NCBI GenBank assembly: GCA_017610205.1 | Contig: JAFCCL010000004.1 | Location: forward strand, 58,220-122,219 | Direction: 5' to 3' | Length of the DNA: 64,000 bases | Source: Candidatus Iainarchaeum sp. | GTDB taxonomy: Archaea; Iainarchaeota; Iainarchaeia; Iainarchaeales; GCA-2688035 | Part shown: positions 30,769-64,000 of the stretch, piece after piece | Layout: each line of letters starts with the position of its first letter | Position numbering within the stretch: position 1 is the stretch's first letter | Translations under genes and position numbers: made by a program | Notes under the pieces: model-generated | What the model was told of the DNA's origin: nothing | What the model saw: only the letters and a program-made list of their open reading frames with translations | Databases searched by the model: none

Positions 30769-30909
30769 TGTATTATCGAGCATCCGAAGGATGTGAAGAT
30801 GGTACTCGCGCCAGCCCCGCGTGTGGGTTGCCGGGCGTGACGGCTTAGTTGAGATTGTGTCATTGAGTTCAAACGAAAATGGCACCCGCACCAGCCGGGC
30901 GTGACGGCT
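30769..30909 (+). repeat. Structured repeat locus A (two full units plus one partial unit)
   Basis: GC-rich. Units are GTRTYATY-GA-stem-GAA-RATGGYAC, a 7-nt linker, then AGCCS-N7-SGGYT. Homologous to 38625-38816 and 41401-41465. Confidence 0.88.
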
Positions 30910-33265: not shown

Positions 33266-33757
33266 ATGAATAATGAAAAAGCACAGGTTGCAACAGAATA
33301 TATTATAATAACAGGATTCATTCTGGCGGTAGTAACCATCATTTTTGCCTATGCATATATTTCAAACAACGAAAATATCAAAGTAAACCAGGCAAGCACA
33401 GCTTTGGACAAAATGGTTAACGCCGCAAACCTTGTATACGCACTTGGCCCAGGAAACATTCAATATATTGAGGTAACATTTCCACAGGGAATTACAGAAA
33501 TTCAAGATGTCACAGTATGCAACAGCGGAATACAAAACTACAATCAGGATTGTACAGAAGAGGACGGAGTAAATTTTGGTGCAATAGAAATGACAGCGGA
33601 ACTTTTAAGCGGAGAAACATCAATCATGAGAGGGGCAAAAACAGAACTTGAACTTGATGGAGAAATTCCTGAAGATGAACGAATTCCGGAAAATGCAGGA
33701 GTGTACAGAATAAAAATTGAATGGTGCGACGACAAAATCTGCTTGAAGAGTGCTTAA
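33266..33757 (+). CDS. Minor pilin A1 (class III signal peptide)
   Basis: EKA|QVATEY followed by a hydrophobic helix. Paralog of 39843-40361. Confidence 0.88.
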   Translation: MNNEKAQVATEYIIITGFILAVVTIIFAYAYISNNENIKVNQASTALDKMVNAANLVYALGPGNIQYIEVTFPQGITEIQDVTVCNSGIQNYNQDCTEEDGVNFGAIEMTAELLSGETSIMRGAKTELELDGEIPEDERIPENAGVYRIKIEWCDDKICLKSA

Positions 33758-33758
33758 T

Positions 33759-34211
33759 ATGTCCAGTCTGAAAGAAAAGGGGCAGACGCCCATTGAAGTA
33801 ATTGCAATTGCAGTAATTATTGTAGCCCTGCTTTTGCTTGTATTTACTACAACAATGAGTAGAAATATGGAAACAGACAGAGTTCTTATAGCAGGAAAAA
33901 GCAGCATCCAATGCAATGCAATGGCTTCTACAATTGCAAGGTTGTACAACAACCGGGCAACAACACAAGAAACATTAAACCTTGAACTAGAAGCAAGACT
34001 TAGGAGAGTGGAAGGAAAACAAGGCGGAATAAATGTAGGAGAAGTAAGCTGCAGTTATATTGGAAGTGTAGCAATGTATCCAGAAGATGGAAAAAAAGAC
34101 AGCAACCCAGACGATACAGGAACTGACGGAATAACTCTTGCTATAGGCAACTGGTGTTTTGAAAAAAACCCTGATACAAATATTGTAATAACGCCGGGGG
34201 AGTGCACTTGA
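33759..34211 (+). CDS. Minor pilin B1
   Basis: EKG|QTPIE followed by a hydrophobic helix. Paralog of 40364-40768. Confidence 0.85.
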   Translation: MSSLKEKGQTPIEVIAIAVIIVALLLLVFTTTMSRNMETDRVLIAGKSSIQCNAMASTIARLYNNRATTQETLNLELEARLRRVEGKQGGINVGEVSCSYIGSVAMYPEDGKKDSNPDDTGTDGITLAIGNWCFEKNPDTNIVITPGECT

Positions 34212-34708
34212 ATAAAAAAGGCCAGGGTATTGCAATAGACTTCCTTTTTGCAGTTATGATATTCCTACTTGTACTCAATGCAAGCCTTACATTGATTGAC
34301 AGCAACAATTCAACAGCCATGGACAAAAACCTCATAGGCGAACTTCAAGCCACTACAAGCCAATCAGTTGACGCACTTGTAAGAACAGAGGGTTCGCCAA
34401 AAGACTGGCAAAACAGAAGTATTGACGAAGCAGTCATAATCGGACTGGCAAAAAGTGACAGGGTTCTTGACAACGACAAGGTTAATACATTTATTACATG
34501 GTCAAAAACTTACAGCAGTAGTGATTACAACATGGTAAAAACATTATTATTAAGTGGTTACGACTTTCATTTCAAGATAGGCGGACTTGAAGCCCCAGAA
34601 GCAAAGCCGCCTATTTGGAACGATATGACAGCAGTAAGAATAAAAAGAATTGTAAATTTTAACGGAGAGGAAGCAATTGCAGAATTCACAATATACTACC
34701 CACAATAA
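34208..34708 (+). CDS. Minor pilin C1
   Basis: KKG|QGIAIDF, G.P.DW and GLA..DRVLD..KV. Paralog of 40770-41354. Confidence 0.85.
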   Translation: MNKKGQGIAIDFLFAVMIFLLVLNASLTLIDSNNSTAMDKNLIGELQATTSQSVDALVRTEGSPKDWQNRSIDEAVIIGLAKSDRVLDNDKVNTFITWSKTYSSSDYNMVKTLLLSGYDFHFKIGGLEAPEAKPPIWNDMTAVRIKRIVNFNGEEAIAEFTIYYPQ

Positions 34709-37700
34709 AAAAGGAATGGCAATATCCATTGACGCATTGCTTGCGCTGATAATATTTGTAGCAATGGTTGCATTCATTTCAACAGACCCTGCAAGCAACC
34801 TAACAACAATACAACCAACGCTTGCAACAAATCAATTGATTGACGACGCAATTGCTGCAATGGATAGAACAGGATTTATAATGGAGTGCATTGAAAATGG
34901 TGAATTTGAGGAAATGGAAACAAAACTTGAAGCCATGCTGCCAGAAATCATGGACTACAATATTGAAATTATAAGATATGAGTCACCGCTGGACAAGGCT
35001 CCGGACAAGCCTTGCAGAGACATTGATTTAGGCCAAGATTTTGAAACATGCTTTCCATACGACACAAATGTTTACAGCATAGGAAGTGAACGGCCAACAG
35101 ACAAAGACATTTTTCACGGGCAAAAAATATTCATAAAAAAAGAATCAGGCGACTGCAGCATTGTATCCGGTTTTGAAGAAAAGAAAAAATGGCTGGAATT
35201 AATATTTGCAGGGGATAACCTACCAGAAGCAAGGGATGTAAACATTACAACAGCAGGCTCATGCCCTGGAAAAAGAAACCCCTGCCCTGCAATAGAAGAA
35301 GGGCAGATGAGATGCTGCTATACATATTACGATGAAGATATCCCACAAAACCCAGAGACTGGTGTTGAATACAAATGGTATATGTATGATGAGGACACAG
35401 ATTTGTGGGAACCGACAGGCGCAGATTTGCCAACACTTGATTTTGACGAAACTGACGACGCAAAAAGGTTCAAATGCTCTGTAAGAGTAAGAGATGGTCC
35501 AAACCCGTGGGATTGGGGAGCTGACACCAACAGCCCTCTTGCAATAATAGGCGGGCCATGCTTTGTATTTGAATCAGAAGTAACACAGGGAGAAGAACAA
35601 GTAACAGAATACAAGTGCGGAGAAACATACGACATAGATTTCAGCATTTCCGGAAGCTCAGGTGAAAGGATGGAACCTGTTGACATAATGCTTTCCTTGG
35701 ACAGAAGCGGAAGCATGAGCTGGCTTGGATTCAATGATGACACAACCGAACTTGCAAAAAGCATTTTTATTGACTCAAGCGGAGCAAGTGATATTGCATA
35801 CTTTGGAACAAACAACCAGGTATACAAATTTGGAATAAATAACCAAACAGGAGACCTTACAACACTTACAAATACAAGTTCAATAGACGACGCACAAGGG
35901 CTCTTTGTTGATGACAGCTATGTATATGTTGCCGATGATGAAAGAGGGCTTACAATACTGGACAAAGACGACTTAAGCATTGTAAGAATAATGGGTAATG
36001 ACAGCGGGAAAGAGATTACAACAGCAAAAAGCGTCTTTGTTGAAGGAGATTACATTTACCTTGCAGCAGCAGGAACCTACATACCCGGAACTGAAAAAAA
36101 ATATGACGCTGAAATGTACGCGGAAAGAAATCAGGAAGATATAAACATAGGCTATAGCTCAACAGGAAGCTGGGCAGCACAATCGTTTATACCAAATGTG
36201 CATGACATAAACGGAATAGAACTTGAGGTAAAAAAAATTGCCGGGAGAATTAATCCTGGAAACCTGACAGTTCACATTAGGCAAACACAAACAGGAACTG
36301 ACCTGACAAACGGAACAGTGGAAATTGCAGCAGGGGATATTCCAACAAACTGGGATGAATGGATTACAGCCAATTTTAATCCTTCAGTAAGCGTAACGCC
36401 TGAGCAAACCTATTACATTGCACTTACCACAACAACAGAAGGCATAGGGCCTTACTATAAATGGGGAAGCAGGCTAATCAATCCAGACCCATACAGCGAA
36501 GGAGCACTCTATGCATGCACCTCAGGCGGAATCTGCACAGAGCAATGGATTGAAGGCGAAGGATGGGAGCCTAACGAGTATGAAGACGCAAGATTCAGGA
36601 CTTTTTACTATTCTTCAATTGTAGGAGGATTAATAATAATAGACAAAAGCGACCCAGACCCAAATAATTGGAATATTTTAAGCAATATGTATAACACAGG
36701 AATCGGATTAATAGACAGACCTCAGGATGTTGTTGTCTCAGGAAATTATGCATATTTAACAGACAGAAGCGGCGGAGACGGTACACAAGGCCTTTGGATA
36801 ATTGACATAACAGACAAGTTAAGCCCTTCAATGAAAGGATTTGTAGAAGCAAGCAACCCGAATTCAGTGGAAGTTTCAGGAAACTATGCATATGTAACAG
36901 ACGGCGGAAACGGAGTAATGGTAATTGATGTAACAAACAAGTCAAACCCTTTGATTGCTCCACCAATAACCGGACTTGGCACAGTTGACGACATTGCCCT
37001 ATATGGAACAAAAATATATGTAAATGCAAATACCCCTGAAGGAGGGGCAAAAAATTACGGAGTGCATGTTATTGACATAACAACTCCTGCAGACCCTGTG
37101 CTGCAGCAAACATTTTACACACAATTTGTAATTGCAGGAGAAAATGAATATGCATTGGATGTAAGCCCTAACTGGATGGCATTGGCAAATGAATATGACC
37201 CAGACTTCTTTGAGAATTATAGTGCAATGACATTAAGCAGACAGTTTGGCAACAAAATGAACATTGCAAAGGAGTCCTCAAAAGAATTTGTCATGTTTGA
37301 AGATTGGAAGTCACCGGAAGACCAAATAGGAATCGTCAGCTACGGAGGCAGCCCTGATGTTAACTTAAACAGCGAATTGAATGAAGCAAGTACTGAAAAC
37401 AAGATAGAATTAAACGGCAAGATAGACTTTATAGAGGCATATATGGGAACTCCTATGACAAGCGGCTTGCAGACAGCAGTAGACGAGCTAAAGCTTCCGC
37501 CAACAGGAAATGGAAGCGAGGATGCAATGCAGTTTATAGTTTTGCTGGCAGATGGACAAAACGACGAAGGCGGCTTGAACGTGGCATACGATGATGCCAG
37601 AGCCAATGAGATATATATTTTCACAATAGGATTTGGAGGAGACGTTGACACAACGCAGTTGGAAAACATTTCAAAATGTGCTTACTGCCCTGATAATACT

Positions 37701-38603
37701 GATACTGAAGCAGACTGCACTGACTTTGTGCTTACAGAAAGCTCGGATTGCGGCAGCTATCACCATATAAGCGACCCGGAAGCATTAAGTGAAGTATACC
37801 AGGTTATTGCACAGAGAATTGCTGAACTTTCAGGAAAGCTTCCTGACGGTGCAACAACAGACATAGCTCTTGAGTTCAACAGATTTGGAAACGGAATGAA
37901 GATAACAGATTACACACCGGTTGAAACAGGCAACTGGGATTCTGACAACAACATTCTGAACTTTGAAAATATCGACATAAGATTTGGGTGGGAAGGCAGT
38001 TTTGAAGCAACAATAGCATGCGATTATGTAGGATGCGGCGAAGAATTTGTTGAAGGAAGCAGTATAAGCTTTCCTCCGAAAGACACTATGATTTCATACT
38101 CGCTTGACGGAATTGAACAGGACCCGATTCTATGGCCTTACAAGTTTGAAGTTGAAAAAGAAGTATATTACAATGACCTTGGCATTGAATTTGATGAAGG
38201 AAAATTTATTCCTCCAAGTGATGCATGGGTAAAATACAATGTTTTAAATGAAGGATACAAAAGCATTGACCTTGGCGACATAATTCCGACAGTAAACTTT
38301 TACAACGGAGAAACTTCTGAAACCGCATGTATTGGCAATCCTGAGAGCAGAGTTGGCGAACAACAGATTGACAAAATTGTTGAAGCAGCTTATGGCACAG
38401 ATTTCGTAAGCGAAGACAGAACAAGTGAAACAGGAGAAACAAACCTAAGTGGAAGCGGATATATTTGCCTCTGGGTAAATCAAACGCGTGGCGATGGAGA
38501 ACAGGATGTTGTTGAATGTGCCGAAAACAATCAGGCTATAATAAACTGTGACATTCCTGAAACATATATATACACCATGGATTACTGGGCGTGGCAAAAA
38601 TGA
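34677..38603 (+). CDS. Pilin-like vWA adhesin D1 with LVIVD-repeat payload
   Basis: KKG|MAISIDALL, MIDAS DRSGS, LVIVD repeats (V.VSGNYAYV.D...G..VIDV), remainder of vWA (IGIVSY, IVLLADG, IFTIGFG) and C-terminal DYWAWQK. Confidence 0.88.
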   Translation: MQNSQYTTHNKKGMAISIDALLALIIFVAMVAFISTDPASNLTTIQPTLATNQLIDDAIAAMDRTGFIMECIENGEFEEMETKLEAMLPEIMDYNIEIIRYESPLDKAPDKPCRDIDLGQDFETCFPYDTNVYSIGSERPTDKDIFHGQKIFIKKESGDCSIVSGFEEKKKWLELIFAGDNLPEARDVNITTAGSCPGKRNPCPAIEEGQMRCCYTYYDEDIPQNPETGVEYKWYMYDEDTDLWEPTGADLPTLDFDETDDAKRFKCSVRVRDGPNPWDWGADTNSPLAIIGGPCFVFESEVTQGEEQVTEYKCGETYDIDFSISGSSGERMEPVDIMLSLDRSGSMSWLGFNDDTTELAKSIFIDSSGASDIAYFGTNNQVYKFGINNQTGDLTTLTNTSSIDDAQGLFVDDSYVYVADDERGLTILDKDDLSIVRIMGNDSGKEITTAKSVFVEGDYIYLAAAGTYIPGTEKKYDAEMYAERNQEDINIGYSSTGSWAAQSFIPNVHDINGIELEVKKIAGRINPGNLTVHIRQTQTGTDLTNGTVEIAAGDIPTNWDEWITANFNPSVSVTPEQTYYIALTTTTEGIGPYYKWGSRLINPDPYSEGALYACTSGGICTEQWIEGEGWEPNEYEDARFRTFYYSSIVGGLIIIDKSDPDPNNWNILSNMYNTGIGLIDRPQDVVVSGNYAYLTDRSGGDGTQGLWIIDITDKLSPSMKGFVEASNPNSVEVSGNYAYVTDGGNGVMVIDVTNKSNPLIAPPITGLGTVDDIALYGTKIYVNANTPEGGAKNYGVHVIDITTPADPVLQQTFYTQFVIAGENEYALDVSPNWMALANEYDPDFFENYSAMTLSRQFGNKMNIAKESSKEFVMFEDWKSPEDQIGIVSYGGSPDVNLNSELNEASTENKIELNGKIDFIEAYMGTPMTSGLQTAVDELKLPPTGNGSEDAMQFIVLLADGQNDEGGLNVAYDDARANEIYIFTIGFGGDVDTTQLENISKCAYCPDNTDTEADCTDFVLTESSDCGSYHHISDPEALSEVYQVIAQRIAELSGKLPDGATTDIALEFNRFGNGMKITDYTPVETGNWDSDNNILNFENIDIRFGWEGSFEATIACDYVGCGEEFVEGSSISFPPKDTMISYSLDGIEQDPILWPYKFEVEKEVYYNDLGIEFDEGKFIPPSDAWVKYNVLNEGYKSIDLGDIIPTVNFYNGETSETACIGNPESRVGEQQIDKIVEAAYGTDFVSEDRTSETGETNLSGSGYICLWVNQTRGDGEQDVVECAENNQAIINCDIPETYIYTMDYWAWQK

Positions 38604-38837
38604 AATTACAAACACAAGCAAGCCTGTGTCATCGAGCCAAAGCGAATTGTGTCATCAAGTCCAAACGAAAATGGCACCCAGACCAGGCGAGTTGTGTCAT
38701 CAAGTCCAAACGAAAATGGGACTCTGACCAGCCGGCAGTGGCGGCTCTCGCACCAACTAGGCCGTGTCATCAAGTCCAAACGAAAATGGCACCCGCACCA
38801 GCCGGGCGTAACGGCTACTGGGCGTGGCAAAAATGAA
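38583..38837 (+). mobile_element. Structured-repeat concatemer (locus B) between 22-bp direct repeats
   Basis: TACTGGGCGTGGCAAAAATGAA at 38583-38604 and 38816-38837 (233 bp apart), enclosing four full or truncated units. Confidence 0.85.
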
Positions 38838-39819
38838 CCAACGAGGAATTTTCATAACATTCATGGTATTTTTGCTTGTCGGAAGCGTTATTGCATTGCA
38901 TGATACTACAAAAAAAACAGATTTAAGGCAGGAAAAAAAATATATTGAGGAAGCAGCCTTTAACAATATAAACAATGCTTTCAACAACGTTTACGAAGAA
39001 GTTATTTCACTAAACAAGGAGGGGAACGCAAGAATTATACAGATTCGGTCACTTCCTTTTTCATACGACTTTAACAAAAATTCAATTATTCTAAGCCAAC
39101 AGATTCCAATAAGATTAAGCGTACTTGACGCATATATTGATACATTAAACGTTTACCGCATTTTTACCGGAAGTGGACTTACAACAGACCTTAACATTGT
39201 TACAGGAACACTTCAAAACACAGCATGGGATGGAGGAGAAGACTATCCAGACTTCAATTATGCAATTCTGCCACAATGCCTTTTGTACGACGTAAACGCA
39301 GACAGCACAATGGTTTTAAGGGAACTTGAAGCAGGGCAGTTTGGATGCGAAAAAGGATTCAATTACACAGACCTTAACATAATTGATATAAACATTTCAA
39401 TTGACTCAAGTCTGTGTACAGCAGGATCTCATCTTGGGACATTGGAACTAACAGGTTTGTCTAAACCTTACCCAGAGTATAGAATAACAGTAAATGAAAC
39501 AAACCCAAGTTATCCAATAACAGGAGGAGGCAAGCTTGAATACTATGGCCACTTTGACCCGGAAAGTTATGGCCCTGGAGAAGACTGGTTTACAATAAAA
39601 TGTAATACAGGCGGCAGTGAAGAACCATGGCTTAGAGTAAAACTTGGAATGGAAAGTGCAAACGACCCGTTTCCATTTGTTGCAAAAAACTTTATTCCTG
39701 CACAGCCAGTGGATATTGATTTAAATATGGTATTTGATACAAAAGTGGACCTGTTTTACTTTACAGGGTTTTCCATAAGCGTTAATAAGGTAAACTTTCC
39801 AATAAAAAGGACTACATAA
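38833..39819 (+). CDS. Pilin-like protein E1
   Basis: NQRG|IFITFMVFLL and LQNTAWDGGEDYP..Y.I.PQCL. Paralog of 46457-47482. Confidence 0.82.
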   Translation: MNQRGIFITFMVFLLVGSVIALHDTTKKTDLRQEKKYIEEAAFNNINNAFNNVYEEVISLNKEGNARIIQIRSLPFSYDFNKNSIILSQQIPIRLSVLDAYIDTLNVYRIFTGSGLTTDLNIVTGTLQNTAWDGGEDYPDFNYAILPQCLLYDVNADSTMVLRELEAGQFGCEKGFNYTDLNIIDINISIDSSLCTAGSHLGTLELTGLSKPYPEYRITVNETNPSYPITGGGKLEYYGHFDPESYGPGEDWFTIKCNTGGSEEPWLRVKLGMESANDPFPFVAKNFIPAQPVDIDLNMVFDTKVDLFYFTGFSISVNKVNFPIKRTT

Positions 39820-39842: not shown

Positions 39843-40361
39843 ATGGCTGGAAAAAAGGCACAAATTGCAATGGAATACCTTATTCTAACAGGCTTTATTC
39901 TTGTAGCAGTGGCATTGATTTTTGGATTTTCATTCATAAACTATAATCAAAACATCAGAATTGCAAAAACAAGCGAAGCCATTTCAAAGCTTTCAAACGC
40001 AGTTGATGACATTTATACAAGAGGCGAAGGAAACACCAGGTTTGTAAAAATATCATGGCCTGACGGAATGAAAAACATTAGCATAGTGTACAAATGCCTT
40101 AATGGAACCCAACAAGACAATGCAGAAGGCTGTGGTGACAGCGAATATGGCGATGTAGAATTCAGCGTAATTTCCATGGAAGTGCAATTACTTGGAGAGG
40201 ACGTAATTGTGATGGAGAGAACCAAGGCAAAAATAAAAGAAAAACTTGACGGCATGGACGACATGGACATACATGGAAACTTTAACCAGTACTCTGGAAG
40301 CACGTACATTGTAAAAGTAAGCTGGACTAGCTCAGGGCTAATACAACTTGAGAGGGTATAA
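39843..40361 (+). CDS. Minor pilin A2
   Basis: KKA|QIAMEYLILTGFIL. Confidence 0.88.
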   Translation: MAGKKAQIAMEYLILTGFILVAVALIFGFSFINYNQNIRIAKTSEAISKLSNAVDDIYTRGEGNTRFVKISWPDGMKNISIVYKCLNGTQQDNAEGCGDSEYGDVEFSVISMEVQLLGEDVIVMERTKAKIKEKLDGMDDMDIHGNFNQYSGSTYIVKVSWTSSGLIQLERV

Positions 40362-40363
40362 AA

Positions 40364-40768
40364 ATGCAAAATAAAGGCCAGGTTTCAATCGAAGTAATGT
40401 TAATTGTCATAATTCTCCTTGGATTATTGCTTGCAACCTCGTACATAATGATGCAAAGAAGCAATGATATAAACAGGCTTGCGACAATTCAAAGAGACAC
40501 ACAAAAATGCGACAATATTGCTTCAGCAATAGTAAGTTTGAGTTCAAACACAGGCTATAGCGAAATGATTGTAACAGGATTTGAAAAGGATGTAAGAATT
40601 GAAAAAGGAAGCGTTATTGTTGGAAATGTTGGATGCAGCTACAAAGGAGATGTGTGGTTTGGTAATAAAAGTGCTGAAAATGAAGACATTTGGCTGCTTA
40701 AGAATCAAACATATTTTATAAAAAAAATAGGTGAAAAAGTGAAGTTTGAATTAGTTGAGGAGGAATAA
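40364..40768 (+). CDS. Minor pilin B2
   Basis: NKG|QVSIE, with C..IAS.I and VG.V.CSY.G shared with B1. Confidence 0.85.
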   Translation: MQNKGQVSIEVMLIVIILLGLLLATSYIMMQRSNDINRLATIQRDTQKCDNIASAIVSLSSNTGYSEMIVTGFEKDVRIEKGSVIVGNVGCSYKGDVWFGNKSAENEDIWLLKNQTYFIKKIGEKVKFELVEEE

Positions 40769-40769
40769 C

Positions 40770-41354
40770 TTGAACAAAAAAGGTCAAGGAATAGCAATTG
40801 ACCTTATGGCAGGTGTTCTGATATTCATAATTATAGGCTCAAGTATTATGTTTGTGTGGGGAGACAAATCGTTTGAAGTGGAAGAAAACCTTTTTGAAAA
40901 TGAAAGAATTGCAATGGCTGAAAGGACTCTTGACACAATAGTAATAAGCAAGGGCCTGCCAACAGATTGGGAAAAATACATTGGAACAGAAGAGGAGATT
41001 GCCAACAACATTAAAATGCTTGGACTTGCAAGAAGAGACAGGGTTCTTGACAAAAAAAAGGTTGAAAAATTTGCAGAATTAAGCAATTTTGAAGATAATT
41101 ACGCAATTCTGAAAACAAAACTATTAATTGGAGGAAACGAGTACTATTTTAGGATTTTGGATCCGAAAAGGGAAAATGTTGACGAACAAATAATCAGCGC
41201 AGGAGAAAGTCCAACAGGCAATGTAGTAGAAATCAGAATCGAAAGAGCGGTGATATACAGCTATCACAGAGACGGAGTAGATGAAGGAGATACAAACAGT
41301 CAGCATGAAGCAATAGCTGAACTGATATTATACTCATCATACTGGAGGAGATAA
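40770..41354 (+). CDS. Minor pilin C2
   Basis: KKG|QGIAIDL. TTG start after SD GAGGAGG. Confidence 0.85.
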   Translation: MNKKGQGIAIDLMAGVLIFIIIGSSIMFVWGDKSFEVEENLFENERIAMAERTLDTIVISKGLPTDWEKYIGTEEEIANNIKMLGLARRDRVLDKKKVEKFAELSNFEDNYAILKTKLLIGGNEYYFRILDPKRENVDEQIISAGESPTGNVVEIRIERAVIYSYHRDGVDEGDTNSQHEAIAELILYSSYWRR

Positions 41355-41357
41355 GGA

Positions 41358-44300
41358 ATGAAAAAGAAATGTTTTGCAAAGCAAACTTCCAAAAACCAGA
41401 AGATTGTGTCATCGAGCAACCAAAGGTTGCGAAGATGGCACTCTGACCAGCCGGCAGGGGCGGCTAAAGGATTTGCTATTGCGGTTGATGCATTACTTGC
41501 AACAGTGCTTACAATAACAGTGCTTACAGTTATAGGCTTTGGAATGCAATCAAACGAAGACATAATAACGTCATCAGAAATAAGAATAAAACAAACTGTT
41601 GACGACACATTCACCGCCCTTAACAACAGTGGAACTATTGCAAAATATCTGGCAGACCCACAACTAACCCAGACTAGCATTTTTAATCCAGACGACCCAG
41701 AAAATCCAGGAATCTACACAGAAGCACAACAGCTTCTGCCGAAAAACATTGGCTTGAAAGTAAAAGTAAGCGAGTACTTGGCAGCTGAAGGCACGGATTT
41801 AGACACCTGCAAAGCAACCAAAAATTTTTCCGACTGCTTTGGCGTACCAACAGGCACTCCATTTGAAGAAGTAGAATGGCCTCTAGAAAGCCTGCCAAAC
41901 AATGAAATTGTACACGGCAGAAAAATTGCAATAACGAAAGAAATATCAACAGGCGAAACTGCAGAAGGAAAAGAATGTGTTCCTGTTGAAAATCTGGAGC
42001 TTAAAGAGTCAATAAAAGAAAAAGTAAACGCTGTGTTTTTAGAAGGCGAAACAGGTATTGAAACATGGATTGAAATAACCGACACAGATGACACGCCAAT
42101 AGACGAACTCTCCTGCGACCAAATTGCAAAAGTTACCATAAGGGCAAGAAACCAAGCCAGAGACCCTGTTGCAATAGTGCTTGCAATGGACGAAAGCGGA
42201 AGCATGAGCACATACGATGCACTAACCCAAGAAGCAACAGGAACATTCAATGCAGGAACATGCAACGACGAACCAGTTTGGGTTGGAGGAAGATTTGAAA
42301 ATGGGTTGGAATTCAACGGCATAACAAACTATGTTAACTGCGGAAACGACTCAGCATTCAATATCCTGGGACAGCTTACAATTGCAGCATGGATAAAGAT
42401 AGATAATGTTGACGAAGACAAATGGATGGTGATTATCAAAAAAAAATATGCCTATTACACTGAAGAAAAAGGCTACGAAATGCTGTACAACCCAGGCCTT
42501 AATGAAGTAAGGCTTGTTGGAGGCGGAGGCGCCTATGCAAAAGCCATAGGCGTTGACCTTGACACAGGATGGCATTTTATAGTAGGAACCATAGACAACG
42601 AAACAGGCGAAATTTACGTTGACACAATAAAAAAGACTACCTGGTATATAATTAGCAGCCTTAAAAGTGGCGCAGACCCAGTAGAAATAGGAAACAGGGA
42701 ACGAAGTCTGAGCAATGGAGACAGGTTCGGCGGAATAATAGACGAAATAAGGCTGTATAATAGGGTACTTACTTCTGAAGAAATAAACGGGCTTTTCGCA
42801 AGCAACACAGAGGTTGGAGATGCAGCAACATCCTTGGTTGCACACTGGGCATTTAATGAAACAGAAAATTTGATTGCAGCAGACAGCAGCGGAAACGGCA
42901 GAAATTGCTCCCTTCAAAACTGGTCCCACTATTATCCAGAAGGAGCAACAGAGTGCATATGGGAAGCAGGGCAAGCAGCAAATCCAGTTACAAACTGCCC
43001 TGCAACAAAATGCGATTACGCAGAATTCACAGACGAGGAAATTGCATTAACCTACGAGATTACACCAAGCTTTTTTGAGAAGATTGTTCCACCATACGAC
43101 AGCCTGAGTTTTTTAGGAGATAGTACATTATACGAAGGAATTTGTACAGACCCTGCAGAGATGAGATTGTGGATAGAAAGGCCTGATGGAGAAGTAGAAT
43201 GTGAAAGTTCAGGAGATGGCGAAACAATAAATAATAGCCAAATTGAAACCGGCGTATACAAAATAAACGTCTGGAGCGATGCACCAGTCGACTACGATAT
43301 CAGGCTTGTACAAAATCTAAAGCGATATGTATATGATAGGCCTTTTGGGGGCGGAGGACATTCAGGCAGTTATAATCCAGGAGAAAGTGAGTGTACAGAC
43401 TTTACAGGATGGGATGAGTTAACAAGCTTTGACTTTTCAGATTACAACAGCCTTCGCTATGTATACTTCAGAATCTTATACGACGCATATACTTCAATTG
43501 GAGGGGCATGTGGAACGCCAAGGTTTAGAGTAAGCTATGAAAGCAATGGCAGTGAATGGATACCTGCAAAATTTGGCAACGGCATGGATTTCAAACACAA
43601 ACAAACATGGGCTAATAATGATAATGCAAACTATATAGAACTTCCAAGCGGTGTAAACCCTGGTATAACAGACAGTTTTAGCTTTTCAACATGGTTTAAG
43701 GGAGGAGAAAGAGTAATTTATGACTACTATCCAACAATGTTCAATTGGGAAAATGACGCAGGAGACAGCAAGCTCTGGATTGGAATACCTAGCAGGAATG
43801 AGGATACTGTTGGCGTTGAACTTAACGGCTTTTTATACTTTTTTAGCGGAGATACATACTTGTATGACATGGCATGGCATCATTTGGTTTTTACCTACGA
43901 TAAGCCAAGCAAAACACTCACAGCATACATAGACGGAGAAGTTTACGCCACCCCAAAATCAGGATTTGTTGACCGAAGCTTTGACTTCACCAACAGCAGT
44001 GCATGGATTGGAACCAACAGAGAAGCCACCGAAGGCTACTTATATCGATCATGGTTTGGCGGGCTTGATGAAGTAAGGCTTTACAACAAAGCACTTACCA
44101 CCGAAGAAATAAGCGAACTTTTCACAAGCAATACAGCTGGAGGTGCAACCACCTCATTGGTTGCACACTGGGCACTAAATGAAAGCACTGGCTACAGTGT
44201 AGCAGACTCCTCAGGAAATGGAAACAATGGAACAGCAGTCCTTGACCAGGAATGGATTATAGGCCCTTGTGGAACAGGTGATTTCAGCGGTTGCGTTCCA

Positions 44301-46460
44301 GGAATAAATACCTGGAGTGGTGCTTACGGACCATTTCTAAGGCAAGGGACTTACAAAGTTGAGGGATGGAGTGATACAGTTACTGATACATCAGCAGATG
44401 TTGAATTATACAGAGGATACCAAGAATGGGGCTATATTTACGGAGACTGGACTAAATCCGAACTTATTGACGGAGGCACATGCAGCAATACGACATGCCA
44501 GTATCAAACAACACCTTCAACAACAGCAAATACAAACTGTCCAATTACAAGCAACGTAAACCCTTATTTCTACAATTATTCAAGGCTCCCAGGGGCAACA
44601 GGCACGCAAACAATTGACACATACAATGTTTCTATAAACCACTACGGATTGCAGGCAGAAGTTACCTTTGACTACACAAATTACACAGACGCAGTATGCC
44701 AAGGAGCAGGAATGGGATTGCAAAACGCTTTTGAAACAGACCCAAACTGGCATTATCCAACCCCGGTGAAAGGAAGCAGTCTAACAAAAACATTTTATAT
44801 AAACGACGGGCCAAGCACACCTTCAGGGCAAGAATATTACAACCATGCTGACGGGCCGCCAATAACAAAAGGAGACTATGACATTTTAGGATGGGCAGAA
44901 GAGGATGTAAGCTACGACATTAAATGGATTCTTCAAAGAATTGATGGAGCAAAAAAGGCAGCAACCAACTTTATGAATAATGCTAGCTGGCAGGCAGATG
45001 ACGAAATAGGCCTTGTTTCTTTTTCAAACACAGCAGAAATAGACCAAGAGCTTACAATAGACAAGGATGCAGTAAAAAATGCAATAGAAGCTCTTGTTCC
45101 AAGTGATGAAACAGGAATAGCCAACGCAATAAATAAATCGATAGAAGAATTAGAACTCAACGCAGAAGCAGGAGTAGCAAGGTTTGTTATATTGCTTACA
45201 GACGGACGGGCAAATGTTTGCAGTGACGGAAGCGTATGCGATGAGGCAGTGGCAATAGATGAGGCAATAGCAGCAGCCAATGACGCAAGAGACAATCATC
45301 AAACAATAATTTATGTTATTGGATTTGCAGAGCCGTCACTAATTGATGAAAACAGTATGAAACAAATTGCCAAGGACAAAGATGCCTTTCCTGAAGAATG
45401 TATAGATAGTGAAAGCAGGTGCGGCAAATATTACTATGCTGAAGATGCAAAAACCCTTGAAGAAATGTATACTTTGATTTCGTTTGAAATAGCAAGGGTT
45501 GTTGGAAACATTGACATAAAAATCCCCATCCCGGCAGGAATAGAACTAAGCAATTATGGCAGTGAAACAGAGAAAAAATGCGGACTTTGGAATGAGGCAG
45601 GAGAAGTTTTCTTGGATCCAGAAGTAGAGTGTTATGGAAAATGCAGCAGCGGGGAAAGCACATGTGTTAGTGGAGAAGAACTTATTTACAGCAATCAGGG
45701 AATAAGCTACTGGTGGCTGGCTGAATTTGATATGGTATCGCCATGCGATGCAGAAAATTGTGAAGAAAGCTATGTTCTCTTTCCTCCAATTGACACAGAA
45801 ATTATAGATAATGCTGACGAAAGCAGTGTCAGTTGGGATGGAAGCGAAATAGAAACTCTGGAATGTGGAGTAGGAGAAAACACTAAATGTCACAAAAGAA
45901 TAAAAATAAAGTATGCCGACCTTAATGTAGCCTTCACATATGGATTACTGAAAACAGGACCGCCGGAAACAGTAACAATTAATTTCGAAATAGGAAACGA
46001 CGGCTACACAAATATAGACCTACCTACAGTTATAGGAAATGGACTGGATGTCTGCTTTTATAAAAAAGAGATAATTCCGGGCAACGAGATATCAATAAAA
46101 TCTGCTTCATTACCTCTTGCAATCTTGGGAGAGAAAAGCAGTATTACTTTAGATAGAGAAATATCAAGCAACTGCCTAAAAATTTCCATTCCAGGCACAG
46201 CAGTAGTTGATGGAACCTGTTCCTGGAAAGAAGACCTATGCACAGTTCCATACGATGAAACATACTGGAAAATTAAAATAGATGACCTTGTTCTCAACGG
46301 CTGTCCAAATGATAATTGCACAGGAACAATAATCGCAGAAATAAATCAAAATCACTACAACAATGTTAGTGAATGCCAGCTACACAATCAGGGCAGGATT
46401 ATCTGCAGCGGAGAACGCCTAAGATTCTTTACCATAGACTATTATGCGTGGATAAAATGA
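41358..46460 (+). CDS. Pilin-like vWA adhesin D2 with two LamG domains in its payload
   Basis: KG|FAIAVDALL, MIDAS DESGS, two LamG domains, remainder of vWA (IGLVSF, VILLTDG, IYVIGF) and C-terminal DYYAWIK. Confidence 0.88.
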   Translation: MKKKCFAKQTSKNQKIVSSSNQRLRRWHSDQPAGAAKGFAIAVDALLATVLTITVLTVIGFGMQSNEDIITSSEIRIKQTVDDTFTALNNSGTIAKYLADPQLTQTSIFNPDDPENPGIYTEAQQLLPKNIGLKVKVSEYLAAEGTDLDTCKATKNFSDCFGVPTGTPFEEVEWPLESLPNNEIVHGRKIAITKEISTGETAEGKECVPVENLELKESIKEKVNAVFLEGETGIETWIEITDTDDTPIDELSCDQIAKVTIRARNQARDPVAIVLAMDESGSMSTYDALTQEATGTFNAGTCNDEPVWVGGRFENGLEFNGITNYVNCGNDSAFNILGQLTIAAWIKIDNVDEDKWMVIIKKKYAYYTEEKGYEMLYNPGLNEVRLVGGGGAYAKAIGVDLDTGWHFIVGTIDNETGEIYVDTIKKTTWYIISSLKSGADPVEIGNRERSLSNGDRFGGIIDEIRLYNRVLTSEEINGLFASNTEVGDAATSLVAHWAFNETENLIAADSSGNGRNCSLQNWSHYYPEGATECIWEAGQAANPVTNCPATKCDYAEFTDEEIALTYEITPSFFEKIVPPYDSLSFLGDSTLYEGICTDPAEMRLWIERPDGEVECESSGDGETINNSQIETGVYKINVWSDAPVDYDIRLVQNLKRYVYDRPFGGGGHSGSYNPGESECTDFTGWDELTSFDFSDYNSLRYVYFRILYDAYTSIGGACGTPRFRVSYESNGSEWIPAKFGNGMDFKHKQTWANNDNANYIELPSGVNPGITDSFSFSTWFKGGERVIYDYYPTMFNWENDAGDSKLWIGIPSRNEDTVGVELNGFLYFFSGDTYLYDMAWHHLVFTYDKPSKTLTAYIDGEVYATPKSGFVDRSFDFTNSSAWIGTNREATEGYLYRSWFGGLDEVRLYNKALTTEEISELFTSNTAGGATTSLVAHWALNESTGYSVADSSGNGNNGTAVLDQEWIIGPCGTGDFSGCVPGINTWSGAYGPFLRQGTYKVEGWSDTVTDTSADVELYRGYQEWGYIYGDWTKSELIDGGTCSNTTCQYQTTPSTTANTNCPITSNVNPYFYNYSRLPGATGTQTIDTYNVSINHYGLQAEVTFDYTNYTDAVCQGAGMGLQNAFETDPNWHYPTPVKGSSLTKTFYINDGPSTPSGQEYYNHADGPPITKGDYDILGWAEEDVSYDIKWILQRIDGAKKAATNFMNNASWQADDEIGLVSFSNTAEIDQELTIDKDAVKNAIEALVPSDETGIANAINKSIEELELNAEAGVARFVILLTDGRANVCSDGSVCDEAVAIDEAIAAANDARDNHQTIIYVIGFAEPSLIDENSMKQIAKDKDAFPEECIDSESRCGKYYYAEDAKTLEEMYTLISFEIARVVGNIDIKIPIPAGIELSNYGSETEKKCGLWNEAGEVFLDPEVECYGKCSSGESTCVSGEELIYSNQGISYWWLAEFDMVSPCDAENCEESYVLFPPIDTEIIDNADESSVSWDGSEIETLECGVGENTKCHKRIKIKYADLNVAFTYGLLKTGPPETVTINFEIGNDGYTNIDLPTVIGNGLDVCFYKKEIIPGNEISIKSASLPLAILGEKSSITLDREISSNCLKISIPGTAVVDGTCSWKEDLCTVPYDETYWKIKIDDLVLNGCPNDNCTGTIIAEINQNHYNNVSECQLHNQGRIICSGERLRFFTIDYYAWIK
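41401..41465 (+). repeat. Structured repeat locus C, a single unit in frame within the adhesin signal peptide
   Basis: AGATT-GTGTCATC-GA-GCAACC-AAA-GGTTGC-GAA-GATGGCAC-TCTGACC-AGCCG-GCAGGGG-CGGCT. Confidence 0.88.
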
Positions 46461-47482
46461 GAAAAAGTATTGGACAGCAGGGAATATTTATAACCTTCAT
46501 GGCTTTTTTGCTGGTAAGCACAGTGCTTACCCTAAGCGTTTTAGTAAACCAGACTGAAATAGGCCAGGGAAGAAATCTTGTCAACGAAATTGCTTTTAAG
46601 AATGTAAACAACAGATTCAACAACATGGAACAGCAAATCATGATTGTAAAAGAAGGTTATGCAGGCGAAACCTATGGTAGATTCATGCCATTTGAAAAAT
46701 TTATAGTAGACAAAAACGTGATTGAAATAGAACAAAAATTTCCTATAAGCGGAAAAGTTTTGGAAAAAACATATGATGCACTAAACCTTTTTACAGTGTT
46801 TGCAGAAGAAAAAGGCTCTGAAGGAACCAATGTCAACATATATGAAGTACTGCAAAACACAGCGTGGAACGGAGAAGAGGACTATCCAAAAATAAGCTAT
46901 ATTGTTTTTCCACAGTGTCTAAAAATTTCTGTTGGAAGCGAAAGCATCCCAGGAATGATGGAATTTGAAGGCGGCAGCATAGCAAGTGGAGACCCATGCG
47001 ATTTTGACCCAAATTCTATTGAAGGCTACGAAATCGAAATACGTTTGGATGCAGACAAGTTTACACCTCCGCCTCCACTGGAATGCAGCGGAGTTTTCAA
47101 TCCCTGCGGAGAAAATGGAGACCCTGAACTGAAAAACGAACCTTATACAAAAATAGTTCTGGTACTTGACAGATACACAAACTGCCCACGTGACGGATTT
47201 GATGCAGAAGGAAAGAGAACTATTTCAGGAAACCTGGACAACATACCAGACATTGACTATATTAAGGCTGTTTTTGATAGTGGATTAAGCTTTAAGCTGG
47301 AATTTGACAACAACAAAATGAAAATAATCAAGAATAATGATGAAGTCGAAATATTTAACTCAAAAATCATCTTCAAAGAGCCGGTTGAAGAAGTTGTGCT
47401 TGCACCGGGCTCTTTCGGTTTTTCTGTGAAAAACCCAGGTTTTAAGATATGCAGGGCAACGGAAGAAGAAGGCTGCAATTAG
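46457..47482 (+). CDS. Pilin-like protein E2
   Basis: ATGA overlap with the D2 stop, GQQG|IFITFMAFLL and LQNTAWNGEEDYP. Confidence 0.82.
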   Translation: MRKSIGQQGIFITFMAFLLVSTVLTLSVLVNQTEIGQGRNLVNEIAFKNVNNRFNNMEQQIMIVKEGYAGETYGRFMPFEKFIVDKNVIEIEQKFPISGKVLEKTYDALNLFTVFAEEKGSEGTNVNIYEVLQNTAWNGEEDYPKISYIVFPQCLKISVGSESIPGMMEFEGGSIASGDPCDFDPNSIEGYEIEIRLDADKFTPPPPLECSGVFNPCGENGDPELKNEPYTKIVLVLDRYTNCPRDGFDAEGKRTISGNLDNIPDIDYIKAVFDSGLSFKLEFDNNKMKIIKNNDEVEIFNSKIIFKEPVEEVVLAPGSFGFSVKNPGFKICRATEEEGCN

Positions 47483-63619: not shown

Positions 63620-64000
63620 GTGAACTACCTGCCCGTGAAGGGGCAGGGGTCCGCGGGTCCAAATCAGTTACAGTTTAACAGTGTTGTTTGTGCTTGAACT
63701 GGTTTGTTTGCTGTCCAGTGTTTTTTCTGGCTTTCGTTGACGTATTTTTTCATGGTTTCTGCTGTTACTGCTCCGACTGTTTTGTGGAAGTATCCGTCGC
63801 TCCACATGCTGTCACCATACAGGCCTTTAACTGTTAGTCTGACGGGAAGTTTTTGTCTTATGACTCTTGCACTTGCACCCTTGAATCTTTGAGCGAGTTC
63901 TGCTATGCTGTAATTTTTCCAGTCTGCAACAAATATGTGAGCATTGTCTGGTCCCAACCCCATGCCAACAAGTTGCACATGGAGCCTTGCAGCAATCTCT
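63620..64000 (-). mobile_element. IS200-type element (right part)
   Basis: The tnpA 3' end is followed by the hairpin CTGCCC-CTTCAC-GGGCAG and terminal TAGTTCA(C). Confidence 0.8.
63664..64000 (-). CDS. tnpA: IS200/IS605 Y1 HUH transposase (partial, start beyond right edge)
   Basis: FKGASAR, WSDGYF..TVG and KKYV..SQ (catalytic Tyr). The HUH position reads PDNAHIF. Frame is open to the window end. Confidence 0.9.
   Translation of the reverse strand, partial: EIAARLHVQLVGMGLGPDNAHIFVADWKNYSIAELAQRFKGASARVIRQKLPVRLTVKGLYGDSMWSDGYFHKTVGAVTAETMKKYVNESQKKHWTANKPVQAQTTLLNCN

Follow-up and report, generated by a model that had tools for sequence, protein, structure and literature searches.

How did a hairpin-forming repeat come to lie, in frame, among the leader codons of a putative surface protein, and what becomes of it there? 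The question is raised by the 5′ end of open reading frame D2 (41358..46460) in a 64,000-nt stretch of contig JAFCCL010000004.1 from the archaeon Candidatus Iainarchaeum sp. (assembly GCA_017610205.1), hereafter called the window. The genome that holds the window measures 1.37 Mb in 24 contigs, with 38% GC, and the window lies on C19. D2 is a candidate pilin-like adhesin of 1700 aa with two Laminin_G_3 domains and a VWA domain (Pfam PF13385, E 4.2e-37; PF00092, E 4.1e-12), and its N-terminus reads MKKKCFAKQTSKNQKIVSSSNQRLRRWHSDQPAGAAKG|FAIAVDALL, the bar marking the presumed cleavage site of a class III-type signal peptide. An earlier reading of the letters, the first-pass annotation, had seen a repeat unit within this leader and likened it to the Rickettsia palindromic elements (RPEs). 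The explanation favoured here, with a probability of roughly two in three, is that the repeat is a tolerated RPE-like insertion into the D2 leader, which would be translated and then discarded with the leader, leaving the exported protein unchanged.

The leader codons M1-G38 (41358..41471; these and the other features of the window described below lie on the forward strand unless stated otherwise) encode a strongly basic stretch that would form the n-region of a signal peptide of class III type and that ends, in the translation, at K37-G38. Beyond the start codon, they comprise the left copy of a proposed decayed target duplication (AAATGTTTTGC, 41367..41377), a C/A-rich leader module (AAAGCAAACTTCC...GATT, 41378..41405) between that copy and the repeat unit, and then the unit itself. 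The unit consists of a first hairpin, H1 (41406..41441), in which an 8-bp outer stem and a 6-bp inner stem are separated by a GA/GAA internal loop and capped by an AAA loop; a linker, TCTGACC (41442..41448); and a second hairpin, H2 (41449..41465), with an AGCCG/CGGCT stem and a 7-nt loop, which includes the sharply defined 3′ end of the unit. The right copy of the duplication (AAAGGATTTGC, 41466..41476) follows at once and encodes K37, G38 and F39, i.e., the presumed cleavage site, directly after which the translation continues into the hydrophobic domain FAIAVDALLATVLTITVLTVIGFG (41472..41543). The unit (41406-41465) measures 60 nt, exactly 20 codons, from GTG (V17) to GCT (A36), and is read in phase 0 and free of stops in the D2 frame, while the total insert, from the left repeat to the end of the unit, measures 99 nt or 33 codons and yields a leader of 38 aa.

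This unit belongs to a dispersed and structurally conserved repeat family. A covariance model (R1), built from the alignment of 14 copies of the same genome, matches it with 65.6 bits (E 8.5e-13) and has 30 matches in the genome in total, and BLAST and motif scans located further copies on ten other contigs. The first-pass annotation had described two 11-mers at 41367 and 41466, 99 nt apart, with a member of a repeat family in frame between them, and on each of these points the sequence is as it claimed. In the build shared by the 14 copies, the outer stem of H1 measures 8 bp and the inner stem 2-6 bp, with a conserved GA/GAA internal loop between them; the linker is TCTGA or TCGCA plus CC, and H2 has the AGCCG/CGGCT stem and 7-nt loop. 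Unit length across the family is 53-60 nt. Pairing is kept in 94.7% of the cells of the 14-copy alignment, with double-sided changes at 8 of 19 pairs. For four of five measures, the observed pairing values were reached in 0 of 500 shuffles, and for the remaining one, the count of further pair types, in 5 of 500; control alignments slid along the sequence gave only 26-56% pairing. Since the 14 aligned copies share one genome, these counts reflect conservation of structure and not independent events. A K-turn identity for the GA/GAA loop of H1 was considered and rejected by eye, as the register that it needs disrupts the stem.

At an E-value of 0.01 or less, the model finds matches in 46 of 101 related genomes, its own included. 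All six other species of the genus carry the unit, with 11-22 matches each, and a more distant, 97%-complete genome has up to 29. No Rfam family reached its gathering score anywhere across the window, and at E<=10 Rfam gave nothing meaningful around the unit or at the tRNA-linked copies in six related loci. An exact-pattern scan of species-representative genomes returned five loci, three of them in one metagenome-assembled genome (MAG) labelled 'archaeon'. The other two, exact 3′ halves of the unit, were on 2.5- and 3.5-kb contigs of MAGs labelled Chloroflexota (L088 and L092), which are probably mis-binned archaeal contigs; the scan was thus of no help for taxonomy.

Orthologs of D2 have far shorter leaders. 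They were drawn from 20 loci in the 101 related genomes, seven metagenome loci and four database proteins (P0002-P0005), and leader length was counted between the invariant Gly and the in-frame ATG closest to it. Where the ATG is clear, leaders measure 4-21 aa, compared with 38 aa in D2 (L085, 4; L010, 5; L012 and L018, 6; L016, 7; P0002, 8; L081, 9; L013 and L017, 10; L006, identical to P0003, 11; L003, 12 or 17; L011, 20; L009, identical to L079, 21); in several others there is no clear start, as the frame overlaps the upstream gene. The expectation of the first-pass annotation that orthologs without the repeat would have a shorter leader is thereby borne out. Searched with the model at E<=1, none of 36 ortholog loci contained the full unit, and residues 1-60 of D2, compared with shorter proteins, gave no match at E<=10. 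Long leaders do occur in P0005, described below, and on a metagenome contig (L080); the latter leader measures ~46-52 aa and contains four (K/Q)GF(A/F) motifs and other small hairpins (e.g., TTGCGG-TGAAG-CCGCAA), which suggests repeated insertions, each duplicating the cleavage-site codons.

Three orthologs bear on the history of the site. The one in G004 (L011) agrees with D2 at 35 of 39 leader nt and keeps its codons MKKKCFTKQTPKN, but has no unit: where D2 carries CAGAAGATT and the 60-nt unit, G004 has 15 unrelated nt, a net difference of 54 nt. The 48 nt from the D2 ATG to the unit have no second copy in the genome, their only real match being this ortholog, and such a single-copy stretch is therefore no dispersed module in its present form. 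Since G004 shares the C/A-rich part but not the unit, the 99-nt event must be old and the recent difference between the two genomes is the unit; the first-pass picture of 99 bp whose removal restores a normal prepilin is qualified to this extent. The ortholog in G006 (L009) reads MAGKSRGKGF-LNLKPAVAA-KGFAISID, in which KGF...KGF surrounds a decayed H2 (…AACCGGCAGTGGCGGCC) that aligns to the H2 of D2 and is flanked by AAAGGGATTT and AAAGGATTC (duplicated AAAGGATT). Of 196 genomes of the order, only G000 and G006 contain the pattern 'H2 end + AARGGNTTYGC'. The third, P0005, is a metagenomic ortholog, 35% identical, with a 64-residue leader before the Phe that ends KWHSCPHKPGVTAKG|FAISID and contains ..AMPLSEAKWH..; tblastn matched this leader to an intergenic copy in the genome of D2 (C17:121937-121975), which reads RWHSCPH*PGVTA. 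On its protein sequence, P0005 carries, where D2 has its unit and in the D2 frame, another variant with a long linker and a type-b H2, and this coding copy has Lys in place of the intergenic stop codon. The simplest history suggested by these comparisons is one old insertion in the genus, which would have stayed intact in D2, half decayed in G006 and shed its unit in G004, and the P0005 unit would be a separate event; independent insertions at the same site could also have occurred.

Coding copies are also found in a second surface protein of the genome, a LamG-repeat protein of at least 3446 aa with 10 Laminin_G_3 stretches that ends at a contig edge (C3:1-10341, minus strand; locus L093). 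It bears two sense, in-frame unit-like copies in a duplicated N-terminal segment (…VQPPERGLYPDQPAVAA…), and these read …PDQPAVAA…, the same frame as the DQPAGAA of D2.

Signatures of insertion are observed elsewhere in the family, and the clearest scar within the window is locus B (38584..38837). There, the same 21 nt stand, without a mismatch, on either side (38584-38604 and 38817-38837) of an array of units and partial units (38620-38816) in the gene cluster paralogous to that of D2. What has been duplicated is the junction at which the stop of gene D1 overlaps the start of the gene that follows; since the duplication keeps both the stop of D1 and the start of its neighbour, the two genes remain intact. 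The equivalent junction in the cluster of D2 is single-copy (46455-46461, …GCGTGGATAAAATGAG…). For the family at large, a duplication was counted when a direct repeat of at least 10 nt started 0-3 nt past the 3′ end of a unit and recurred no more than 200 nt upstream, with one row per locus or array and lower-scoring secondary matches excluded. It was found at 6 of 29 loci in relatives (10, 12, 15, 20, 20 and 29 nt) and at 1 of 24 in the genome of D2; among 106 control windows, taken 60 and 100 nt downstream, none had one. Given the 21 nt of locus B and the 9-11 nt of D2 as well, target duplications of this family have no fixed length. Two more loci of the genome, on C16 and at C17:89846, show by eye mismatched duplications of tRNA 3′ ends, the latter agreeing at 16/20 positions. 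The longest duplication seen, of 29 nt, is at L052 (G001:C46), where a unit and its 27-nt leader sit within a 179-aa open frame on the opposite strand.

The piece between the left duplicate and the unit has a recurrent form as well. It measures ~8-48 nt and mostly ends in a GCGAAGC- or GCGAGCAT-like box. In D2, the C/A-rich module joined to the GC that ends the left repeat gives GCAAAGCAAAC; it resembles the GCGAAGC / GCAAAGCGAAC boxes ahead of units at other loci (L058 carries GCAAAGCGAAC) and fits the pre-unit pattern of the family. Terminal inverted repeats were looked for by eye at the ends of the D2 insert (GCAAAGCAAAC... and ...GGGGCGGCT) and none were seen, the hairpins being internal.

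Where translation begins is narrowed by the sequence itself. The stretch from the unit to the K-G|F codons is free of the canonical starts ATG, GTG and TTG, so that the N-terminus of D2 must start in or before the unit; a start downstream of the unit, which would have contradicted the first-pass annotation, has no canonical codon at its disposal. On sequence grounds, the ATG at 41358 is the favoured start. It has a Shine-Dalgarno-like GGAGGAG 5′ of it (41344..41350), it lies 3 nt beyond the stop codon TAA of the preceding gene (41352-41354), a position that recurs in the same-genus orthologs L006 and L011, and the codons that follow it are conserved in G004.

Class III processing, as outlined in one account, calls for G, A or S at position -1, a charged residue at -2 and a site ahead of a hydrophobic domain (PMC4371748). 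D2 fits these rules, with K37-G38|F39 and then 24 mostly hydrophobic residues (the mature-side stretch being FAIAVDALLATVLTITVL). Position -1 is G throughout the ortholog alignment (A2) and position -2 mostly K or R, and D9, A10, L11, L12 and A13 of the hydrophobic domain are invariant. The neighbouring genes at 39843 and 40364 match PF04021 (Class_IIIsignal), one with 24.6 bits, over the cut-off of 23.7, and the other below it with 21.4, and the genome encodes three A24 peptidases (PF01478, over the cut-off). A prepilin peptidase would thus be expected to remove the D2 leader after G38.

The proposed course of events runs as follows. A two-hairpin repeat copy would have inserted between the D2 start codon and the Lys-Gly|Phe site, accompanied by a short leader module on its 5′ side and by a duplicated target, AAAGGATTTGC. 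Translation would begin at the ancestral ATG (41358) and read on through the insert, and the n-region, formerly of ~5-20 residues, would have grown to 38. The lengthened stretch would lie on the cytoplasmic side, where one of the three A24 peptidases would cut it off, or where it would be kept as a tail if unprocessed; cleaved or kept, it would leave the exported LamG/VWA protein unchanged. The copy would persist because the site tolerates it, and not through doing a job.

Several observations weigh against this reading. The flanking duplication at D2, taken alone, is weak evidence, as the left and right 11-mers agree at 9 of 11 positions, and a repeat as good arises in 152 of 20000 shuffles (0.8%), in 525 of 20000 random genome windows (2.6%) and in 24 of 523 windows that start with ATGAAAA (4.6%). 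It gains weight because other copies of the family show the same build; of the decayed duplication around a C/A-rich leader and one unit that the first-pass annotation had described, the architecture therefore matches the family, whereas the 9/11 agreement by itself carries little. Next, an n-region of 38 aa is far longer than that of any ortholog with a clear start, and the peptidase may not tolerate it. Class III profiles, compared with D2, D1 and two orthologs, gave no match (Pfam, E<=10; NCBIfam, E<=1), and the case for processing therefore rests on rule-like features and operon context. Two codons within the unit, GTG 41406 and TTG 41427, are in frame and could act as alternative starts. 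Finally, the unit is structurally perfect though the duplication that flanks it has decayed, which could hint at selection on the unit; its change, 1 in ~45 comparable nt, as against ~10% divergence of the shared leader between the two lineages, is not significant.

An intact unit beside decayed flanks would also suit a unit kept for an RNA role in the D2 mRNA, be it the tuning of translation or stability or the recruitment of a factor shared with the copies in front of tRNA genes. The fold of the D2 unit is stronger in the sense orientation, at -29.1 kcal/mol (z -4.4), than in the antisense one, at -20.5 kcal/mol (z -1.8), and U.G, which works on the sense strand only, is the most frequent pair at one helix position (9 of 14 copies). 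Loop and linker bases are conserved across the order, among the matches in 46 of 101 genomes. An RNA role is nonetheless unlikely. The fold predicted for 41340-41500 leaves its first 24 nt unpaired, the ribosome-binding site and the AUG included, and the hairpins begin 48 nt after the AUG; the unit is absent from G004, reduced to a decayed half in G006 and found at full length in none of the 36 ortholog loci; the junction recurs in just the two genomes of the order named above; and the two family copies of locus A (30770..30909) lie between two minus-strand genes, antisense to both. The first-pass suggestion that structure near the start might tune adhesin translation finds no support in the position of the hairpins or in the loss or degradation of the unit in relatives.

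The copies that adjoin tRNA genes bring in RNA from another side. In the genome of D2, 4 of 25 unit loci lie no more than 3 nt from a tRNA gene called by ARAGORN, tRNA-leader units being found at C10:83325-83383 and C20:10200-10257, and a fifth locus, on C24, adjoins a tRNA-like start that ARAGORN did not call. When the best match of each related genome is considered, 11 of 29 sit 0-6 nt 5′ of a same-strand tRNA gene (L051, L053-L055, L061, L062, L064, L069, L071, L074 and L076), the tRNAs preceded by units in relatives being those for Ile, Ala, Tyr, Asp, His, Val, Cys and Phe; among the same 29, one more lies 3′ of a tRNA and one on the opposite strand. Since such units end just before the tRNA +1 position, on the same strand, they would be transcribed as pre-tRNA 5′ leaders. 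At L053 (G017:C26, ~1426-1558), the unit occupies the 16S-23S spacer of an rRNA operon, ahead of tRNA-Ala. The placement varies within the genus: a unit precedes tRNA-Ile(UAU) in G000, G006, G002, G001 and G092, and the BLAST alignments of G003 and G004 begin at the tRNA itself.

tRNA leaders, an rRNA spacer, gene ends and a peptide leader have in common that they are parts trimmed by the cell, which fits survival in tolerated sites and may leave room for a role at the RNA level, or for the sharp 3′ end having been set by RNA in origin. In its fullest form, the latter idea would make the family an RNA-defined element at home in pre-tRNA 5′ leaders, with its 3′ end, …CGGCT, at the RNase P cut site (+1); once released, the leader RNAs or their DNA copies would now and then end up as patches in staggered breaks, and the D2 insert would be one such event, comparable to that of a short interspersed nuclear element (SINE) but in archaea with no recognisable reverse transcriptase. 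Patching of this kind would explain the variable duplications of 9-29 nt at the 3′ end and the ragged 5′ module, and the family does display SINE-like traits, namely a defined 3′ end, a variable 5′ extent and target duplications of variable length. We nevertheless regard this origin as a long shot.

The Y1 transposase and a reverse transcriptase were both considered as mobiliser and rejected, as neither co-occurs with the unit. Over the 101 genomes, unit and Y1_Tnp occur together in 17, the unit only in 29, Y1 only in 16 and neither in 39, and one 97%-complete genome has 29 copies of the unit and zero Y1 matches. By coordinates, none of the seven Y1_Tnp and four TnpB matches of the genome of D2 adjoins a repeat unit. 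A Y1 (IS200/IS605-type) transposase fragment lies at the end of the window (63733-63999) and a TnpB-like gene near its start (2391-2588). The reverse transcriptase domain PF00078 was found in 0 of 23 genomes of the taxonomic family searched, own included (61-93% complete), and all seven same-genus genomes carry 11-27 units despite having no match to it.

Initiation within the unit, at the GTG or the TTG, would give a leader of 22 or 15 residues and leave the upstream part untranslated or confined to a separate short product. The first codon of H1 is indeed ATG in several variants of the family and in the leader of P0005, and both codons are in phase with D2. However, both lie inside H1 and lack a good ribosome-binding site, the ATG at 41358 has the GGAGGAG and the conserved spacing, and the frame that it opens runs uninterrupted across the leader module, part of which is conserved codon for codon in G004; internal initiation is improbable on this evidence.

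A shade less probable again is that D2 is anchored by its N-terminus and is no substrate of a prepilin peptidase, in which case the residues of the unit would lengthen a retained cytoplasmic tail. The missing profile matches of D2 and its orthologs would agree with this, and the hydrophobic stretch could serve as a signal anchor, but the invariant G at -1, the usual K or R at -2, the small class III-type genes of the cluster and the presence of A24 peptidases speak for a processed leader. Excision of the insert from the mRNA before translation, e.g., by the tRNA-splicing endonuclease at a bulge-helix-bulge, can be set aside as highly improbable. In its favour, the predicted fold allows the flanks of the insert to pair with the unit between them, and removal of 99 nt would preserve the frame. 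The archaeal bulge-helix-bulge, however, has two 3-nt bulges separated by a 4-bp helix at exon-intron junctions, and none is present in the minimum-free-energy or centroid folds, in which H1 has instead an internal loop of 2x3 nt at symmetric positions. The coding copies, moreover, hold an open frame of whole codons, with the Lys of P0005 in place of an intergenic stop needless if the insert were spliced, which argues for read-through.

As for the genes around it, D2 is the fourth of its cluster in one of two tandem paralogous clusters of pilus type (33266-39819 and 39843-47482). In both, a pair of small class III-type genes is joined by genes for three other proteins, one of 168-199 aa, a giant one of the VWA type and one of 331-369 aa that starts M..(Q/R)G|IFITFM. 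The giant adhesin-like VWA proteins differ, D1 having LVIVD repeats and D2 LamG domains. Three repeat loci of the genome, A, B and that of D2, are packed into ~11 kb near these clusters.

If the D2 copy is a tolerated passenger, then structured (semi-)selfish repeats can persist in a very compact archaeal genome within sequence that is discarded after use, i.e., in an adhesin leader here and, elsewhere in the family, in front of tRNA genes and once in an rRNA spacer. For annotation, it would mean that an unusually long leader in a gene of this kind should not be taken for a misassigned start codon. Natural variants with and without the repeat, moreover, offer a way to gauge the n-region length that archaeal prepilin peptidases accept. 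Beyond D2, the tRNA-adjoining placement and the long, variable duplications are the more interesting part of a family that is order-wide, conserved in structure and without a link to reverse transcriptase or Y1.

How does this family compare with repeats already known? Searches of open full texts turned up no account of the family itself and no paper on such repeats in DPANN archaea or in class III signal peptides. The likeness to repetitive extragenic palindromic (REP) elements and bacterial interspersed mosaic elements (BIMEs) lies in short, GC-rich, imperfect palindromes that are multicopy and often cluster as short arrays at the ends of genes. REP elements lie outside genes and leave no duplication of their target, and the gene for the REP-associated tyrosine transposase (RAYT, of the Y1 type) is typically flanked by the repeats. 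The present family differs in that duplications are seen, in its independence of Y1_Tnp over the 101 genomes, and in that it never adjoins the seven Y1 genes of the D2 genome.

Miniature inverted-repeat transposable elements (or MITEs) have been documented in prokaryotes, archaea such as Sulfolobus and Halobacterium included (PMC10969869). As portrayed there, they are, like the repeats considered here, non-autonomous and multicopy, with direct repeats of the target at their flanks and an occasional intragenic position; in contrast, the present family has no visible terminal inverted repeats, a duplication of variable length and no identified parent insertion sequence. A closer parallel in placement is the enterobacterial repeat RU-2, which forms part of the predicted signal peptide of YPO1552 in Yersinia (PMC2759123). 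Both are small mobile intergenic repeats that extend a gene in frame at its 5′ end and contribute to a predicted signal peptide. In the case reported for Yersinia, RU-2 supplies the hydrophobic core of a Sec-type signal, whereas the unit in D2 lengthens a charged n-region and the protein has a hydrophobic domain of its own.

The analogy with RPEs, drawn already in the first-pass annotation, is the one that fits best what is seen here, namely a dispersed family, hairpin-forming units and in-frame coding copies. RPEs are described as dispersed hairpin repeats found between genes and in frame within them (Ogata et al., 2000; reviewed in PMC10969869). According to that description, both are short dispersed hairpin repeats that are read through as an extra peptide and leave the gene unbroken. 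On the other hand, the two are presumably unrelated in sequence and belong to different domains of life, and the archaeal unit, at 53-60 nt, is shorter than the RPE, given as ~150 bp. The sharp 3′ end, the duplications of 9-29 nt and the frequent site 5′ of tRNA genes are further differences of the present family, and the D2 insert lies in a leader that is probably cleaved and not in a folded protein. RPE-like is therefore meant as a functional class only: in this archaeal host, the term claims no membership of the Rickettsia sequence family, and denotes a dispersed hairpin repeat with copies that keep the frame of the genes in which they lie.

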